Source: a virus. From it: a stretch of DNA of 64,000 nt. The stretch lies in the IMG/VR virus record IMGVR_UViG_3300019760_000006, positions 1 to 64,000 of that record; one strand, given 5' to 3'. Below the pieces are notes generated by a model. The model did no database searches, had not been told where the DNA came from, and saw only the letters and a list, made by a program, of their open reading frames with translations. Below are positions 19,831 to 45,189 of this stretch, in pieces. Positions within the stretch are counted from its first letter, which is position 1; every line of letters starts with the position of its first letter. The position numbers were made by a program, and so were the translations under genes.

Positions 19831-20409
19831 TTAAATAATATTAATACTCTCAATATCCATTGGCAAGGCAACTGTTGTTTCATACTCAGCAGCAGACTCA
19901 ATAGCTAAGATAGTTTTATCCTGTGCACTAAGATCTAAATTTTTAGTAGTAAATAAACTACCAAGAGCAATCTTTGTTCCACTGCCAGATGCATAGTATT
20001 TATCAACAGACTTTATAACTTGATAATTCCCTTCAATGCAAAATATACCCCCTGTATCTGTAGCTACAAGGATGTGGCTGTCCATTTCTTCAACATTATT
20101 TACGTTTCTGGAGTATAATCCAACTTTTAAGCACTCTATAACACTATTAACAAACTCTGTATGCATGAATTTATTAATATCAGTTTCATTTCTATTCGGT
20201 ATTTCTAAAGAATACTGTAGAAGAGACTGGCACTTGGGGTCTCCACTTACGCCTATTAAGTATTCATGTTTTTGATCCGCATCTTTAATCTTAAAGATCT
20301 TAGGGTTTGATAGAACCCTTTTAACACCTCCGCTTGTACTTATACATGTGTCACTTGCCATCCAAACTTTCTTATCTTCTTTGTCGATATATGAAACAAT
20401 ACAAGTCAT
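19831..20409 (-). CDS. HslV / proteasome-beta-like Ntn protease
   Basis: Starts MTCIV (N-terminal Thr nucleophile) behind AAAGGA; ASD, KIF, ASGSG...ALG motifs. Confidence 0.8.
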   Translation of the reverse strand: MTCIVSYIDKEDKKVWMASDTCISTSGGVKRVLSNPKIFKIKDADQKHEYLIGVSGDPKCQSLLQYSLEIPNRNETDINKFMHTEFVNSVIECLKVGLYSRNVNNVEEMDSHILVATDTGGIFCIEGNYQVIKSVDKYYASGSGTKIALGSLFTTKNLDLSAQDKTILAIESAAEYETTVALPMDIESINII

Positions 20410-20462
20410 TTTAAATAGTTCCTTTCTTTTCATTCCTTTTACATTAATATCCAATTTAACAT

Positions 20463-26843: not shown

Positions 26844-27182
26844 TTATTTCAACCAGTCCGCTATTTTGATTGGTTGCCCAGTAATATCAATTCCACTTTT
26901 CAAAGTTTCAACAACCATTTGCATCCTTAATGGTAAGGATTTAAAATTTAATTCATACCCACTTCCTGCTTTTAATGAGTTTTTATTAATTCCAATCTTA
27001 TCAATCCAATATTCTTTCATTTGTTTGTTATACTCTATTTCCTTCCATCTTGCAAGTAAAATCTTGCAGATTTTGTCAAATTCATGATCAGAAATAACGC
27101 TCATATCATGTTCATAGTACAAACAGCTATGACAAACATATAATCTACACAATCTATCTGTTGATATTGATTCAATATTCAT
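26844..27182 (-). CDS. Stand-alone NAD-dependent DNA ligase domain Ia-like protein
   Basis: YVCHSCLYYEHDMSVISDHEFDKICKIL matches LigA Ia YYxxDxPxISDxEYD; no adenylation domain follows. Confidence 0.75.
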   Translation of the reverse strand: MNIESISTDRLCRLYVCHSCLYYEHDMSVISDHEFDKICKILLARWKEIEYNKQMKEYWIDKIGINKNSLKAGSGYELNFKSLPLRMQMVVETLKSGIDITGQPIKIADWLK

Positions 27183-27265: not shown

Positions 27266-27697
27266 CTAATACTCATTTTTCAAATCAATAACTTCTTGCT
27301 TATAATTTTCAATTCTTTTAATAAATTCATTAAGATGCTTATCAGACTGCATAATCACAATATTACATAACCCCTTAAAGCAAGCTTTACACTCATTTTT
27401 ATCTGTAAAAACTCTCAATGGTGTGCCAGTCCTACTCCTATATCCAGTATTATCAAAAACAGGAATTGGTCTCTTCGTCCACTCACCTTTCTTGTTAAGC
27501 TTAAAGAAACAAGATTGTGTATAATAGATGTTTTTGTTACCTGCATCTGAGATTGGTCTAATTTCAACTTTTGTTGGTAGAACTTTCCGTACAGGTTTAT
27601 CAGGGAATCTTCTTCTAAAATCACAAATCCAAACCTGTTCATAATCCATACTTCCATTTGTGATCTTATCAATATCAACTTCTGATTTGTATTCCAT
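27266..27697 (-). CDS. Hypothetical protein
   Basis: 143-aa ORF with AAAGGA RBS, downstream of a - strand TTGACA near 27797. Confidence 0.7.
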   Translation of the reverse strand: MEYKSEVDIDKITNGSMDYEQVWICDFRRRFPDKPVRKVLPTKVEIRPISDAGNKNIYYTQSCFFKLNKKGEWTKRPIPVFDNTGYRSRTGTPLRVFTDKNECKACFKGLCNIVIMQSDKHLNEFIKRIENYKQEVIDLKNEY

Positions 27698-27812: not shown

Positions 27813-28469
27813 TTAAAATTCCCAATTAGCCTCATACAACTTCTTTCTATCCACCAAAGAAAAACCTTTTAAACATTCTTCATAATTAGAGCAACTTCTC
27901 CTTAGATGAAAATTATCTCTAATATTATAACCAGAGATAATTGTATACTCACCTTTCAACCTGTTAGCGAAGTACTCTACAAAATCAATTGGGTTTGTAC
28001 AAACAATAACCTTCTTTCTGTGAATTAAATCATCAAGTATACTATCTCTAAAGAACAATGAACCAACCTCAAAGACAACCTCCTCAAACTTATCAATATA
28101 ACTTCCACATTTAAGATTATTATATTCTTTACTTACGTACCACGCAAGGTTTTTACTTTCAGTGTACCAAAGAAATTCTTTTACTTTAGCTCTTTCATTA
28201 AAAGCAAAAGTCTTTCCACAACCAACACCAGTTAGGATAAACACAGGTTTATTAATTTCTGGTTTACATTCTACAACAAGTTTCTGAAATTCTGTTAAAA
28301 CAACAGATTCTGTCTTGTTCTTTTCATAATTGAGCCTATCCTTCAAATAGTCAACTTCTTCTTTGAGAATCCTCTCCTCAAACTCCTTCACAAAACCAAA
28401 GGGGCTTCCAGTAATATCCTGAATTTGTTTGATAAGATTATATTTCTCTTCTTTTAGTTTATAACTCAT
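27813..28469 (-). CDS. Degenerate terminase-large-subunit ATPase-like protein (no nuclease domain)
   Basis: LTGVGCGKT Walker A, VCTNP motif III, and C-terminal IRDNFHL...Y...L...DRKKLYEANW that aligns with TerL CYDNTYL...Y...L...DRDRLLHGCW in this window. Confidence 0.7.
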   Translation of the reverse strand: MSYKLKEEKYNLIKQIQDITGSPFGFVKEFEERILKEEVDYLKDRLNYEKNKTESVVLTEFQKLVVECKPEINKPVFILTGVGCGKTFAFNERAKVKEFLWYTESKNLAWYVSKEYNNLKCGSYIDKFEEVVFEVGSLFFRDSILDDLIHRKKVIVCTNPIDFVEYFANRLKGEYTIISGYNIRDNFHLRRSCSNYEECLKGFSLVDRKKLYEANWEF

Positions 28470-28486
28470 AAATATCCCTTTTATTT

Positions 28487-28837
28487 TTATTTAATTTTGT
28501 ATATTTTCTGATTATTACTGGCGAGTGTTATGCCAGTAAGTTCATCTGTGATTGGTGGGAGATCTTTAATGCAATCACCAGTATTTAAAATCCAAACTAT
28601 ATGATGAGCTTTAATTAGTTGGTTATTAAGATTTATAGATACTCTTTCATATCTTTTCTTAGGATCGGGTTTATTCCTGTAGCCTGCAACCTTACCAGAC
28701 CACCTTGTATTCCAATTTTTCTTTCTATCAGTACGGTATCTCCATATAAGATTTCCAGTAGAGTCATCATACTTCAAAACACTTTTTATATATTCATAAC
28801 TTGGTCTATTACTGGATGGTTCAATATATTTATTCAT
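28487..28837 (-). pseudogene. Truncated HNH homing endonuclease remnant
   Basis: LKYD..TGNLIW...GKVAG...AHHIVWIL.TG N-terminus, but no DH...N...NL catalytic core. Confidence 0.65.
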
Positions 28838-28838
28838 A

Positions 28839-31199
28839 TTATCCGCACCTACTGAACCCGCAATTTTTACAAGAAGCACATCCTCCATCATTTACATAAG
28901 CTTTCTCGCCACACTCAGGACAAACCAACCCAATCTCATCGTTCTCATCTTCAATTTCTATCTGTTTTACATATCTTCGAAGAACTCTACTAAGTATGCC
29001 AGAGCAATCTACCATACTGTATGATGATTTGTCAAGCTGTTTTAAAACTTCATCAAGAGAGATACCATACCTGAAACACATACTTATAACTCTACAGATG
29101 GCATCCCAATTACTTTGCCTTTCAAGTAGAAGAAAGCTATTAAACATACCATCTTTATCATTACCAGCTTCAAGTGGTAGCTTTGTAAACACTTCAATAG
29201 GTAAGTCATCTTCATCAAGAGATACATTCAAATAAGCCTTTGATTTTTTCCACATAACTTCATGTCTTTCTGCATTTTCAATAGGTAGAAGTTCTTTTTT
29301 AATGAGAATACTCTCTGTAATTTCTTTTGGAACTGTGTTTTCATTATCTATTACGGCAGATAATACACCTTCTTTACAGCCATCTCTAAAAACTGTAATT
29401 CCCTTTAGTTTTTTCTTCCAAGCATCAATGTAAATAGAAACTATTTGATTCTTTGTACAATTATTTGGTAAATTAATTGTTGAGCTGATGCTTGAATCTG
29501 TAAATTTTTGAATTGCTGATTGAATCTTAATCCTATCCTTTGGTTTAACTTCGTCAGCTTCAATATAACAAAGTTTGTTCTTCGCCTCTTTAAGAGAGAT
29601 TCCATCAAAGCTATCTAAATCATTTAACATTTGTTTACAGGGAAGATAATGAATAAATTCATACTCTTTATTATCAATCCTGTTCTTTCTTCTATATGAA
29701 AACTTAAAAGATGGTTCAATACCGCTTGTACAATTATCAGAGATAATACTTAGTGTCCCTGTGGGACCAAAAGTATTGAATGATGTGTTTCTCATTCCAA
29801 AAGTGATAATATTTTCTGTAAGATCATCATCTAATTCAATCCAGCCAGACTTTTTAATTGCTTCGACAAACTTTACTCTATCAGACCTTTCACTTAATGC
29901 CTCACATGGGCCTTCATCGACAGCAATATCAACTGATGTCCTCATTGCTTGTGAAAGTAAAATACTCGTAACCGAGCTAATAAATTCCTCTGACTCTTTG
30001 TCTCCATAAACATAGCCAAGCATTGCAAAGGTATCACCAATACCAGTCTGTTCAATACCAATACGTTTTCCAAAACTATCAGCTAACTGCTGTTCAGGAA
30101 GAGGATGTTTTGTTTCATTGATATCTGAAAACACATTCATAATTCTTGTAGCTGTCTCAACATCATACTCAAAAGAATACCAATCAAATTCTGCCAACTC
30201 TGTGTAAGGATTTTTAACATATTTATGAAGAACAAAAGAACCCAAAAGGCAATTATTCCAATAACTTAACATTTGTTCTCCGCATGGATTGCTGGAAATA
30301 GGTTTAAGTTTATCACTAATGTATGTTCCAAAAGTATGCTTCTGAGCTGTATCAATAAACATCACACCTGGATCGCCACATTTATGGCTTGCTTCTGCAA
30401 TAAGATCAAGGATATCTCTTGCTTTCATTTGGGAATAGTATTTAAACTCCCCACCAGATTTAAACCACTTGTCATAGTCACCCCCCCACTCTTTCTCATA
30501 CTTCTCTTTATCTTTTTCAATATCTGGGAAACAAAACACCCACTCTTCATCATTCTCAATGGCAGTCATAAAACTATCGGTTAATTTTAGACTTACATTT
30601 ATACTCGAAATATCAGGCAGACTGTTTGTAAATATATCTTTTTGAAAAACTTGCTCAGGCCAAGCCTTACATCTGATAAAATCAATAGCGTCTGGATGGC
30701 GAATATCAATAGTCGCAATCATTGCCGCCCTTCTACCATTGGTCCCAACAACCTTACCTAATTCAGAAAAACTTGGCAGAAAGGAGACACTCCCACTACT
30801 TGTTATTGCTGCATTATCAACTTTTGTATTTTTTGGTCTTAGAATCGTAATATCAAAACCGCTACCACCTCTCATCTTAAAAGTGTTTGCGAGATTCTTC
30901 TGGCATTCAAATATTCCATCCATACTATCAGACTCAATTGGTGTGAGATAACAATTACTGAAAGATCCTCTCTCACCTTTATTACAACAACTAAGTATGC
31001 TTCCAGCAGGTAAAAACTTCCCGCTTCTAAGGAGTTCTTTTTGTTTTTTATTTGTTATCTCACAGTATTCAATAACTCCTTCAATAACATCTTTAACATC
31101 TTCGTGACCATACTTGTTAAGGCACACCATTTTGATAAATTGTTCATGTTCTTCAATACTCTGCTCAAGCAACCCTCTTGTTATTTTCACTTCACTCAT
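28839..31199 (-). CDS. nrdJ: Class II (adenosylcobalamin-dependent) ribonucleotide reductase
   Basis: FLPAG, SNC, GGSG, RRAA, NPCGEQ, GPTGT, TSGIEP, LKGITVFRDG; C-terminal CPECG...C..CGFSRC; no small subunit gene nearby. Confidence 0.9.
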   Translation of the reverse strand: MSEVKITRGLLEQSIEEHEQFIKMVCLNKYGHEDVKDVIEGVIEYCEITNKKQKELLRSGKFLPAGSILSCCNKGERGSFSNCYLTPIESDSMDGIFECQKNLANTFKMRGGSGFDITILRPKNTKVDNAAITSSGSVSFLPSFSELGKVVGTNGRRAAMIATIDIRHPDAIDFIRCKAWPEQVFQKDIFTNSLPDISSINVSLKLTDSFMTAIENDEEWVFCFPDIEKDKEKYEKEWGGDYDKWFKSGGEFKYYSQMKARDILDLIAEASHKCGDPGVMFIDTAQKHTFGTYISDKLKPISSNPCGEQMLSYWNNCLLGSFVLHKYVKNPYTELAEFDWYSFEYDVETATRIMNVFSDINETKHPLPEQQLADSFGKRIGIEQTGIGDTFAMLGYVYGDKESEEFISSVTSILLSQAMRTSVDIAVDEGPCEALSERSDRVKFVEAIKKSGWIELDDDLTENIITFGMRNTSFNTFGPTGTLSIISDNCTSGIEPSFKFSYRRKNRIDNKEYEFIHYLPCKQMLNDLDSFDGISLKEAKNKLCYIEADEVKPKDRIKIQSAIQKFTDSSISSTINLPNNCTKNQIVSIYIDAWKKKLKGITVFRDGCKEGVLSAVIDNENTVPKEITESILIKKELLPIENAERHEVMWKKSKAYLNVSLDEDDLPIEVFTKLPLEAGNDKDGMFNSFLLLERQSNWDAICRVISMCFRYGISLDEVLKQLDKSSYSMVDCSGILSRVLRRYVKQIEIEDENDEIGLVCPECGEKAYVNDGGCASCKNCGFSRCG

Positions 31200-31277
31200 G
31201 TACTTTAACCTTTTCTTATTTAATTTTATCATTCACTTGATCTTCTGTGAGCCTGACCATTGTTTTTACACTGTTCA

Positions 31278-42965: not shown

Positions 42966-43673
42966 ATGAGTGAAGATGAAAAAGAGTTTAGGGTTATTAA
43001 AGAGTTTCCTGATTATGAGATTAACAAAGAAGGTATTGTAAGAAGGGCGAGTGATAAATTTAAACCTAATATTAGAAGGAATGGTAGGGGGTTTAAGTCA
43101 GTATCTCTAAAAGGTTCTAATGGGTTTAGATCTGTATATATAAAAAGACTCTTAGATTCTACGTTTAACAAACCAGAAGAAGATGATATTGTATCTTTAG
43201 ATGTAATAGGTTATCCAGAATATTCAGTAACATATGAAGGAAGAGTATGGAGTTACAGATCTAATAAGTTTATGGCACCGAGAAAAATAGGAAGAGGATA
43301 CTATGGTGTAAGTCTTGTAAATGAATTTGGTGATAAACATTTCTTAATTCATAGATTAATGGCTTTAACTTTCATACCTAATCCAGAAGACAAACCAACA
43401 GTTAATCATATAGATGGTGACAAAACAAATAACTGTATTGTAAATTTAGAGTGGGCAACATATGAAGAAAATAATAAACACGCTATATATAATAATTTAA
43501 GAGATAAAATTTTGGACACAGATAAAGTTCATGAGATATGTAAATATCTACAAGACAATGTAGGTTGTTTTGTAAAAGATGTTTGTAAAAAATTTGACGC
43601 TTCTTGGGATCAGGTTGGTGATATAAGAAAAAGAGTGACTTGGACTGAGATATCTAAAAATTATATATGGTAA
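42966..43673 (+). CDS. NUMOD4-HNH homing endonuclease (free-standing)
   Basis: Two NUMOD4-like repeats (FPDYEINKEG, YPEYSVTYEGRV) plus HRL...VNHIDGDKTNN...NLEW; own TTGACA at 42896. Confidence 0.9.
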   Translation: MSEDEKEFRVIKEFPDYEINKEGIVRRASDKFKPNIRRNGRGFKSVSLKGSNGFRSVYIKRLLDSTFNKPEEDDIVSLDVIGYPEYSVTYEGRVWSYRSNKFMAPRKIGRGYYGVSLVNEFGDKHFLIHRLMALTFIPNPEDKPTVNHIDGDKTNNCIVNLEWATYEENNKHAIYNNLRDKILDTDKVHEICKYLQDNVGCFVKDVCKKFDASWDQVGDIRKRVTWTEISKNYIW

Positions 43674-43689: not shown

Positions 43690-45189
43690 ATAAGTAATGA
43701 AGAAACTCATCAGCTTGGGCCTTGTAGTAAAAAGCAAGAGATGATTTTAAACAATGATTCTACCCTTCTAATATGCGGAGGTGCGGCGGGATCGGGTAAA
43801 AGTTATCTCTTGCTACTGATGATTTTGAAGTACGTTGATTGTCCAAATTGGCGTGGTGTCATTTTCAGGAGATCGTATACAGAAATTGAATCTGGTGGAG
43901 GCTTGCTTGATGAGGCATCTGCAATGTATTTTGGCCTCCCCAAAAAATATAGGCCGACACTAAATAGATCAAGGGTTTGTTTTACATTCCCCTCTGGAGC
44001 GCAACTCCAGCTTGCGTCGATGCAGCATCACCCTAAAGATACTCTTAAGCAATCTGGTTCGCAATTTAGTTTTATCGGGTTCGACGAACTTTTTACGTTC
44101 GAAGAACAGCAATTCGTTTTTCTCTTTTCCCGCCTTAGATCAAGATCAAAATATCCAGGGAGGGTAGTTTGCACTACAAACCCTTATGGTGATACATTTA
44201 TCCTGAAATACGTCATAGATAATCTTGATGAGGGCGGTTTCCCTATTAAATCGCTTGATGGTAAGAAAAGATATTTTATTCGTAGAGGTGAGGATGTAAC
44301 ATTTGCCGATACTGAAGAAGAACTTAAAGAAAAGTTTGGTGATAAAGTAATGCCAATATCTTTTTCTTTTATATCGGCTAATTGTTATGATAACACTTAC
44401 CTAATGGAAAATCAACCTGAGTATGTGGCCCACCTGGAGTCACTAAAAGATGTAGATAGGGATAGACTTTTACACGGTTGTTGGTTTGCGAAAGAGAAAG
44501 CCGCTAAATATTTTGATAGAGACTGGCTCAATAAATTAGATGAAGTCCCAAGAGGTAGTACTTGTTGTAGAGGTTGGGACCGTGCATCCTCGCCGCCTTC
44601 GGAAAAAGAATTACATCCAGATTTTACAGCCTGTTGTAAGGTTTGGAGGACTCGTAATGGTGATTTTATAATCACAGGCCAGCATAGTAAAAACAATTAT
44701 GATGATGTAACTAATACTTACGGTAGGTTTAGAAAGACTCCTGGTGAAAGAGAGAATATAATTCTTGAACAAGCTATAAGTGATGGAGAATCTTGCACTA
44801 TAGTTTTGAGTGAAGATCCTGGTAGCGCAGGAAAATTTGAGTATAAGGAAAGTGCAAAGGTATTAATGTCTGAGGGTTTTCTTGTTAAAAGAGACCCTGC
44901 TTGTCCTACAGCAAGTAAACTAAAGAGGTTTGAACCGTTTTCTATTGCTTGTCAGAATGGTTTAGTAAGCATAGTTGAGAGTACATTTGACAGAAAAACT
45001 CTTGATGCCTACTATAAGGAGCTTGAAGATTTTGATGGTGAGCGTTCTTCAAGAACACGTAAAGATGATCAAGCCGATGCTACAGCTACAGCCTTTAACT
45101 ACATTTCCCAAAAGAAAAACATCCCGATAGTTTGTAGAAATCAACAAAATTTAAAGACAATGTCTAATAGTCTTCTAAATACTCTTTAA
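43690..45189 (+). CDS. terL: Terminase large subunit
   Basis: GPCSKKQ, GGAAGSGKS, FIGFDE, TTNP, GWD nuclease start, DDQADA; frame open from ATA 43690 behind GGAGGTGA. Confidence 0.95.
   Translation: MSNEETHQLGPCSKKQEMILNNDSTLLICGGAAGSGKSYLLLLMILKYVDCPNWRGVIFRRSYTEIESGGGLLDEASAMYFGLPKKYRPTLNRSRVCFTFPSGAQLQLASMQHHPKDTLKQSGSQFSFIGFDELFTFEEQQFVFLFSRLRSRSKYPGRVVCTTNPYGDTFILKYVIDNLDEGGFPIKSLDGKKRYFIRRGEDVTFADTEEELKEKFGDKVMPISFSFISANCYDNTYLMENQPEYVAHLESLKDVDRDRLLHGCWFAKEKAAKYFDRDWLNKLDEVPRGSTCCRGWDRASSPPSEKELHPDFTACCKVWRTRNGDFIITGQHSKNNYDDVTNTYGRFRKTPGERENIILEQAISDGESCTIVLSEDPGSAGKFEYKESAKVLMSEGFLVKRDPACPTASKLKRFEPFSIACQNGLVSIVESTFDRKTLDAYYKELEDFDGERSSRTRKDDQADATATAFNYISQKKNIPIVCRNQQNLKTMSNSLLNTL

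Follow-up and report, generated by a model that had tools for sequence, protein, structure and literature searches.

Large terminases are treated as single-copy, two-domain motors. A small phage protein that resembles only the ATPase part of such a motor has been described once, in phage Bas60, where Ksap2 (KpAvs2-stimulating protein 2; Bas60_220) has a terminase-ATPase-like fold and both binds the immune receptor KpAvs2 and triggers it (PMC11564622). It is the only published small phage protein of this kind that was found, and so the nearest published analogue of the protein treated here. A search of the literature for terminase decoys, ATPase-only terminase paralogues and phage-encoded dominant-negative terminase fragments returned nothing relevant, and no description of a conserved, stand-alone, catalytically impaired copy of the ATPase core was found in the literature searched. 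The present analysis concerns ORF218, a 218-residue open reading frame (ORF) (27813..28469, minus strand, stop codon included) in a 64-kb window that forms the first 64 kb of a 92.8-kb virus record, IMGVR_UViG_3300019760_000006. The same window carries a full large terminase subunit (TerL; 43741..45189, plus strand) with both Terminase_6N and Terminase_6C domains, which was used as the comparison partner. The identity of ORF218 as a stand-alone, trimmed and catalytically impaired paralogue of the TerL ATPase domain is well supported. The best explanation overall, with a probability of roughly 0.4, is a pseudo-ATPase that works by occupying a partner.

Simple searches do not reveal the relationship. 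BLASTP of ORF218 against the TerL of its own genome gave no significant match (best E 1.4), and scans of ORF218 with Pfam, PHROGs and NCBIfam gave none either, with no Terminase_6N at E≤1. In the Pfam scan of the whole genome, Terminase_6N appears only in the real TerL. Because BLASTP was insignificant and Pfam and PHROGs returned no terminase match, the alignment with TerL that had been made by eye needed profiles. When the alignment of the ORF218 family (A2, 12 sequences) was compared with that of the TerL family (A3, 40 sequences) by hhalign, residues 175-217 of ORF218 matched TerL 208-249 with a probability of 95.8% (E 7.6e-9, score 66.6), and a second, colinear match covered the Walker A/P-loop region (E 7.9e-5). 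Reversed profiles scored about 17 and 30 column shuffles at most 20.1, against 66.6 for the real pair, and residues 55-174 of ORF218 alone scored 36.6 against TerL, their shuffles reaching at most 17.9. Greedy/global hhalign placed ORF218 64-218 on TerL 1-250, colinear over the ATPase domain. It paired Walker A with Walker A, E134 with D115, V135 with the catalytic E116 and VCTNP with VCTTNP, and the colinearity extends to the C-terminal DNPxL...Y...L...R...GxW segment. The global alignment needs two large gaps, opposite about 75 and about 55 extra residues in TerL.

Other sources of evidence agree with the profiles. The ORF218 family does not reach the Terminase_6N gathering threshold of 22 bits (12.4 bits for P0004 and 14.4 bits for P0008), and the sub-threshold matches of these two homologues fall precisely on the C-terminal segment (152-205 of the 215 profile positions). 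Of the 30 nearest clusters by language-model features in the ESM Atlas, 25 are Terminase_6N/Terminase_3, and the best structural neighbours there are TerLs, with template-modelling (TM) scores of 0.73-0.75 over residues 55-218, against 0.63-0.67 for helicases. Since the profile matches, the controls, the sub-threshold Pfam matches and the Atlas neighbours agree, the resemblance between ORF218 and TerL is confirmed, and it is well beyond chance. A TerL origin of ORF218 is quite probable.

The matching part of the protein is its core domain, residues 55-218 (27816..28307; all features of ORF218 are on the minus strand), a five-stranded RecA-like P-loop fold followed by C-terminal helices. The Q motif LTEFQK occupies residues 58-63 (28281..28298), with Q62 invariant in the family, and is followed by the Walker A motif LTGVGCGKT at residues 79-87 (28209..28235), whose glycines are also invariant. 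A Walker B-like strand, EVVFEV, lies at residues 130-135 (28065..28082; VVFEV being 131-135), and IVCTNP at residues 155-160 (27990..28007) pairs with the TerL coupling motif VCTTNP (consensus sCNP). The C-terminal terminase signature covers residues 175-217 (27819..27947; YTIISGYN.RDN.HL...Y..CL......DRK.L...NW; predicted local distance difference test (pLDDT) value about 50-60) and includes the stretches ISGYNIRDNFHL at residues 178-189 and NYEECLKGFSLVDRKKLYEANW at residues 195-216. The counterparts in TerL are GGAAGSGKS, IGFDE, VCTTNP, ISANCYDNTYL and EYVAHLESLKDVDRDRLLHGCW, with CSKKQE in frame just upstream of the first ATG. The end of ORF218 corresponds to TerL residue 250, at the boundary between the ATPase and nuclease domains, and a nuclease domain (Terminase_6C) is absent. 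No longer or fused relatives of ORF218 occur in the searchable set. The frame is intact and shows no frameshift; a Shine-Dalgarno sequence, AAGGGA, can be read 5 nt before the ATG (28475..28480, minus), and a 17-nt gap separates the gene from the stop of the upstream HNH ORF.

Ahead of the core, residues 1-54 (28308..28469, minus) form an N-terminal extension with two long predicted helices (pLDDT 63-76). This extension is not conserved, and the homologues start with short or Cys-rich (CxCxxC / CxxC) N-termini. In P0003, P0007 (locus L001, 9989-10531), P0012 and P0013, a short Cys-rich motif (CxCxxC or CxxC) replaces the 54-residue helical N-terminus. As judged from these sequences, the Cys-rich N-terminus of the homologues might, with the invariant C68, provide a site for a metal. 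A split second terminase, with ORF218 and the downstream 143-residue ORF143 (27266-27697) as its halves, was also considered and rejected, as ORF143 matched the TerL nuclease region only at E 0.009 (hhalign). ORF143 was likewise discarded as a nuclease remnant: its Atlas neighbours are unrelated phage proteins (Phage_g100-like), and it has no relatives in IMG/VR.

The state of the active site was followed across the family. Besides Q62 and the P-loop glycines, the residues C68, P70, E71, K74, P75 and R93 are invariant. ORF218 itself has the Q motif, a Walker A of the GxxxxGK[ST] form (GVGCGKT) and a coupling motif, VCTNP, which reads TN[PG] or TP in the family. The Walker A lysine is present in 9 of the 11 homologues and gives way to another residue in P0007 (GVT) and in P0012 (GTT). 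ORF218 keeps the Walker B acid as E134, which is E or D in the family and aligns with TerL D115. At the following position, 135, where TerL has its catalytic E116, the homologues carry V, M, G, N, Q or P and in no case (0 of 11) an acidic residue, so that a Walker B of the hhhhDE form with its catalytic glutamate is missing from ORF218 (VVFEV). The invariant FRR motif of TerL lies within a segment that is deleted from ORF218. Because the adenine-binding glutamine is kept while the catalytic base is lost, and the phosphate-binding lysine is lost in some lineages, the family would most simply be a nucleotide-binding or purely structural pseudo-ATPase. That ORF218 is a pseudo-ATPase derived from TerL is likely.

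Two AlphaFold2 models, one of full ORF218 (pLDDT 79.7) and one of the core 55-218 (pLDDT 83.1), both give a confident five-stranded RecA-like domain at residues 60-180 (pLDDT above 90), with low confidence for the C-terminal helices and the non-conserved N-terminal helices. In a fold search against solved structures, the ORF218 core resembles the whole helicase/terminase class, and TerL is not singled out: Rep, DEAH-box helicases and others score 9-10, and the ATPase domain of T4 gp17 scores 9.0-9.1 (root-mean-square deviation 3.1, 123 residues). No other solved TerL ATPase domain is in the top 50 of that search. Helicases also appear in the profile comparisons. The family profile matches FBH1 at E 0.008 and Escherichia coli UvrD plus Rep at E 2.1e-5, and Pfam UvrD-helicase gives sub-threshold matches in 7 of the 10 homologues scanned, at profile positions 1-35 (Q motif and motif I). 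The UvrD/Rep/FBH1 similarity is confined to the first 35 columns or so, which hold the Q motif and the P-loop, and a DEAD-box control profile gave no match to the family. TerL is the sole family with two separate colinear matches, and it also accounts for the C-terminus of ORF218. As TerL matches two colinear segments and the helicases only the first 35 columns or so, the helicase resemblance is best read from these alignments as a shared ancestral Q-motif/P-loop module, and a helicase-derived or chimeric origin of ORF218 is improbable.

The same data bear on whether ORF218 could be an active minimal ATPase of the helicase/terminase class, such as a superfamily 1 (SF1)-like loader or a small motor subunit, with a catalytic base that comes from elsewhere in the protein or from a partner. 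The family matches to FBH1, UvrD and Rep and the UvrD-helicase matches just described fit such a protein, as does the retention of GxGxGKT, the Walker B acid and the TNP/TP motif in 9 of 11 members. However, the helicase similarity spans only those 35 or so columns, motifs II-VI and a second RecA domain are absent, and the protein is too short; SF1 UvrD-like proteins (PF00580) have motifs I-VI and two RecA-like domains, and ORF218 has a single RecA-like domain. The catalytic glutamate is found in no member, two members lack even the P-loop lysine, and the TerL matches fall in two colinear segments. An active ATPase of this class is therefore very improbable, and the pseudo-ATPase derived from TerL is preferred.

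An earlier note on this DNA, made by inspection of the letters alone, had called ORF218 a second, degenerate TerL ATPase domain, and the profile, language-model and fold evidence supports it. All motifs that it quoted are present in ORF218 and in TerL (CSKKQE just upstream of the TerL ATG), the greedy/global alignment matches them up in the way that it had proposed, and it was right that ORF218 has its own ribosome-binding site and no frameshift and that it stops where the nuclease domain would begin. Of Walker B, which it called lost, the catalytic glutamate is absent from all 11 homologues and the acid persists as E134. The kinship with Terminase_6, for which it suggested a comparison, is borne out by profile against profile; the Pfam threshold is not reached, and the search of solved structures is not specific to TerL. 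Its functional readings, an Avs decoy or a dominant-negative against packaging, were neither borne out nor refuted by the analyses run.

The ORF218 family is rare. Searches of 5.8 and 1.8 billion proteins gave 11 homologues, all metagenomic, from uncultivated phages and 33-67% identical, with their invariant residues concentrated in the motifs. No match was obtained by tblastn and blastn against 50,697 phage genomes, nor by a scan of genome contigs for the family. Scans of metagenomes and IMG/VR gave one further phage only, G001, a complete 82.5-kb phage with terminal repeats (loci L001, L002 and L005 are its copies), in which the homologue lies directly after a class II ribonucleotide reductase (RNR) gene without an intervening HNH ORF. 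Between the window phage and G001, identity is 56% for RNR, 52% for a phosphoesterase, 47% for ORF218, 46% for dUTPase and 44% for TerL, and the small ORFs of the 20-kb arm are for the most part not shared. The G001 homologue is the only one with DNA, and at 47% identity its substitutions are saturated; two samples of the G001 phage differ at 1 site in its gene. Because its identity is on a par with that of TerL and RNR while neighbouring small ORFs have turned over, ORF218 behaves as a core gene of its lineage, neither a decaying fragment nor fast-turnover cargo.

These data also speak to the possibility that ORF218 is a functionless, decaying remnant of a duplicated terminase gene. Such a remnant might be expected to look as ORF218 does in some respects, as the catalytic glutamate and the nuclease domain are lost, the family is rare and a homing endonuclease gene is adjacent. 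Against this, the frame is intact and has a ribosome-binding site, the 11 homologues keep their invariant residues in the motifs, and the gene matches TerL in conservation between two phages whose small ORFs have mostly been exchanged, so that decay is barely credible. The conservation speaks against the neutral decay among homologues that the earlier note had named as fatal to its idea, the G001 homologue being 47% identical where TerL is 44% identical.

For the function of ORF218, the following model is proposed. ORF218 would be an old stand-alone paralogue of a T4-type (Terminase_6N) TerL ATPase domain that was reduced to a minimal RecA-like core. It retains the Q motif, a P-loop rich in glycine, the acid of Walker B and TNP, together with the strand and helix that close the ATPase domain, and has lost the catalytic glutamate, about 75 residues from helix 1 to the Walker B strand (FRR included), about 55 residues after TNP and the whole nuclease domain. 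Such a protein may bind nucleotide and hydrolyse it poorly or not at all, and if so it would not move DNA but occupy some partner with which the TerL ATPase domain normally makes contact. Action by mimicry of TerL towards some TerL partner is plausible, at somewhat less than even odds. Paralogues that have lost catalysis are often regulators or competitors of their active relatives. For this reason, and because the nucleotide-binding face and the domain-closing segment are the parts retained, the packaging machinery (TerL ring, TerS, the small terminase subunit, or portal) is the leading guess for the partner, a tentative choice that is on balance somewhat unlikely. ORF218 could then be a regulator or competitor of packaging that is made from a replication and nucleotide-metabolism operon. 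Its position in the opposite-strand nucleotide-metabolism arm suggests that it is probably expressed before the late genes and TerL.

Several points weigh against this model. The C-terminal segment that matches TerL is modelled with low confidence, the Q-motif/P-loop stretch matches UvrD/Rep about as well as TerL, and the full GKT P-loop kept in 9 of 11 members leaves room for some ATPase activity. The analyses run did not identify the partner of ORF218. A complex prediction of the ORF218 core (residues 55-218, A2) with TerL 1-255 (A3), a single run without controls, scored 0.30, under the mark of 0.32, and speaks neither for nor against binding. Furthermore, 15 kb separate ORF218 from the packaging genes, which occupy the opposite strand; it belongs to an RNR/dUTPase/ThyX module, and from this location a role in nucleotide metabolism or replication fits at least as well.

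The window is AT-rich (GC about 32%). Its nucleotide-metabolism arm occupies the minus strand between about 16 and 40 kb, and its packaging and structural genes are on the plus strand from about 42 kb, with TerL and portal at 43.7-49.8 kb. ORF218, between the RNR and dUTPase genes, thus lacks the location in a packaging module, beside TerS and portal, that goes with a complete TerL. Along the direction of transcription, the order is class II-type RNR, HNH ORF, ORF218, a promoter-like site, the 143-residue ORF and a ligase Ia-like protein; dUTPase and kinases are found farther along the arm, and ThyX lies upstream. The RNR gene (28839..31232, minus) has the domains Ribonuc_red_lgC (E 2e-89) and TSCPD, and in both phages of known context an RNR gene stands upstream of the ORF218 family member as a conserved neighbour. 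The HNH endonuclease ORF between them (28487..28891, minus; PHROG 99, E 1.9e-14) overlaps the 3' end of the RNR gene by 53 nt and is missing at the same spot in G001.

In this setting, ORF218 could be a re-used TerL-derived P-loop domain that no longer has anything to do with packaging. It would bind ATP or dATP and act as partner or regulator either of the class II RNR beside it or of a different replication protein. ORF218 lies directly 3' of RNR in both phages of known context, with the HNH insertion as the sole difference, although the core proteins of these phages are just about 45-55% identical. No terminator-like site separates RNR from ORF218, a promoter-like site follows the ORF218 stop, and dUTPase, ThyX, kinases and a ligase-like domain are encoded around them in the arm. 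The adenine-contacting Q62 is invariant even where the P-loop lysine is lost. Nevertheless, the adjacency comes from two related lineages with a common overall gene order and is weak evidence for that reason, and there is no known RNR accessory protein with a fold of the ORF218 type. A role as an RNR or replication accessory is unlikely, though it deserves to be taken seriously.

Bas60 provides a further observation on the RNR neighbourhood. Ksap2 (bas60_0220, 111 aa) of Escherichia phage PaulScherrer (MZ501100.1, 124604-124939; L006, with relatives at L007-L012) belongs to a class I RNR locus: in 80 Stephanstirmvirinae records its gene is flanked by nrdA and nrdB and overlaps the latter. Escherichia phage ESCO5 has an HNH gene between nrdA and the Ksap2 homologue, as one stands between RNR and ORF218 in the window. 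Two phage groups therefore have a small terminase-ATPase-like protein right after the gene of the RNR catalytic subunit, which would favour an RNR-linked role for a weak TerL-ATPase-like fold. Yet Ksap2 has no sequence support as a homologue of ORF218. A 7-member Ksap2 alignment compared with A2 gave an hhalign E of 0.38, with no detectable homology, and the A2 profile found no match in the Bas60 genome. Ksap2 itself matches the TerL profile only marginally (E 0.009), with a score of 24.5 where shuffles reach 20.6 at most. The match concerns the TerL region from Walker B to the following helix (AGxQ...IW.S...ATAYAL.RARS in Ksap2 and QGLQYS.I.FDE...YLMSRLRS in TerL). The TerLs of Bas60 and the window are 41% identical, and the Bas60 arm and the window genome share almost no proteins. 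The shared RNR-adjacent position is a lead, not a result. On a wider reading, ORF218 and the Ksap2-like proteins would form one unrecognised class of early, RNR-linked, dead miniatures of the TerL ATPase with regulatory roles, in which ORF218 would be a non-hydrolysing binder of its own TerL, the portal or a terminase sensor. Their purpose might be to cap or time the packaging motor or to couple the supply of deoxynucleoside triphosphates to packaging, and their copied terminase fold would put them amid the Avs arms race as triggers or sponges. Such a class is distinctly unlikely.

A role in immune evasion, the proposal of the earlier note, has also to be weighed, namely that an early, dead mimic of the TerL ATPase binds the terminase-sensing Avs receptors, which belong to the STAND (signal transduction ATPases with numerous domains) proteins, blocks their assembly and shields TerL. 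Avs1-3 bind the TerL fold directly and so recognise it (PMC13581612), and KpAvs2 is predicted to contact the TerL ATPase domain (PMC11564622). ORF218 keeps the TerL-like core and, to judge from genome position, probably precedes the late genes. However, Avs sensors become active on binding the target, whose core they envelop (PMC13581612), much of the TerL surface is missing from ORF218, and Ksap2, itself a small TerL-ATPase-like phage protein, binds KpAvs2 and triggers toxicity (PMC11564622). The activation of Avs2 by Ksap2 thus counts against a simple decoy. ORF218 is in addition conserved like a core gene and is not patchy cargo, which is untypical of anti-defence cargo. A PADLOC scan of ORF218 gave no match, PADLOC having models of defence systems only and thus being silent on anti-defence proteins. 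By analogy with these precedents, and given the missing TerL surface, an Avs-decoy function is possible but disfavoured, and as an account of ORF218 it is highly improbable.

Other genes of the window have features of their own. The spot of the HNH ORF at 28487-28891 is apparently a recurrent landing site for homing endonucleases, the ESCO5 HNH gene being in the analogous place. A 112-residue protein in the ORF218 operon (26844-27182, minus) stands alone and comprises just one part of NAD-dependent DNA ligase, the NAD+-binding Ia domain from its N-terminus (Pfam Nlig-Ia, E 2e-12); it is a second isolated enzyme domain there. Farther along the arm, a proteasome-subunit-like protein (19831-20454, minus) has a counterpart in G001 (L001 13003-13560; Pfam Proteasome, E 3e-11), with 29% identity between the two phages. 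The equivalent arm of Bas60 also annotates a 'putative proteasome component', and blastp at E≤1e-3 gave no match in the Bas60 arm to the proteasome-like protein of the window.

Immediately upstream of TerL, a 235-residue HNH_3-domain protein is encoded (42966-43673, plus), an arrangement as in HNH-assisted packaging systems, and Pfam found no canonical TerS among the ORFs scanned in the window. The conserved N-terminal segment of TerL that contains the Q motif (GPCSKKQE) lies in frame at 43690-43741 (plus), upstream of the first ATG/GTG/TTG. Since this segment precedes the first such codon and the frame opens just 20 codons before the 43741 ATG, the sequence suggests that TerL probably starts upstream of that ATG at a non-canonical codon, which would be the Ile codon near 43690. 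In G001, one in-frame TGA occurs within the TerL match.

Should the packaging machinery be its target, ORF218 would be a pseudo-enzyme by which a phage regulates a viral DNA motor, and it would lend itself to studies of how the ring assembles. Should it encounter Avs receptors that sense terminase, it would illustrate how phages cope with immune recognition at the level of a fold, or exploit it. ORF218 also offers a minimal TerL ATPase core of about 125 residues for structural work, and the value of the finding would rise sharply if binding to TerL, portal, RNR or an Avs sensor proves true.

An activity like that proposed for ORF218 is known from the packaging-interference proteins of satellites, including the TerS-like and Ppi/Rpp-type proteins of phage-inducible chromosomal islands (PICI) and Staphylococcus aureus pathogenicity islands (SaPI) and the Sid and Psu proteins of P4. 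These proteins are small, and through mimicry or direct contact they redirect or block a terminase or capsid. None is homologous to ORF218. What they target or mimic is TerS or the capsid rather than the TerL ATPase, and their genes belong to satellites, not to the phage itself. With domain 1A of the SF1A helicases (UvrD/Rep/PcrA/FBH1; PF00580), ORF218 shares the Q motif, the P-loop spacing, the GxGxGKT loop and the following helix, but it is without motifs II-VI and the 1B/2A/2B domains, and its C-terminal segment is terminase-like. Ksap2 is like ORF218 a small protein of a narrow phage group that is encoded immediately after the gene of the RNR catalytic subunit. It differs in having 111 residues and no P-loop, in its place between nrdA and nrdB of a class I RNR, and in being an Avs2 trigger by experiment, ORF218 being known here from its sequence alone. 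The closest likeness is to the ATPase domain of T4/PBSX-type TerLs (PF03237; T4 gp17, PDB 2O0H). Shared with it are the RecA-like fold of the additional strand, conserved E (ASCE) type, the upstream Q motif, the P-loop, the Walker B acid, the TNP coupling motif and the closing strand-helix signature. Unlike this domain, ORF218 has no catalytic glutamate and no nuclease domain, stays below the Pfam threshold and, through the deletion of two segments, has a core of about 160 residues instead of about 250. Its gene is a second copy beside a complete TerL and belongs to a nucleotide-metabolism operon at a distance from TerS and portal.

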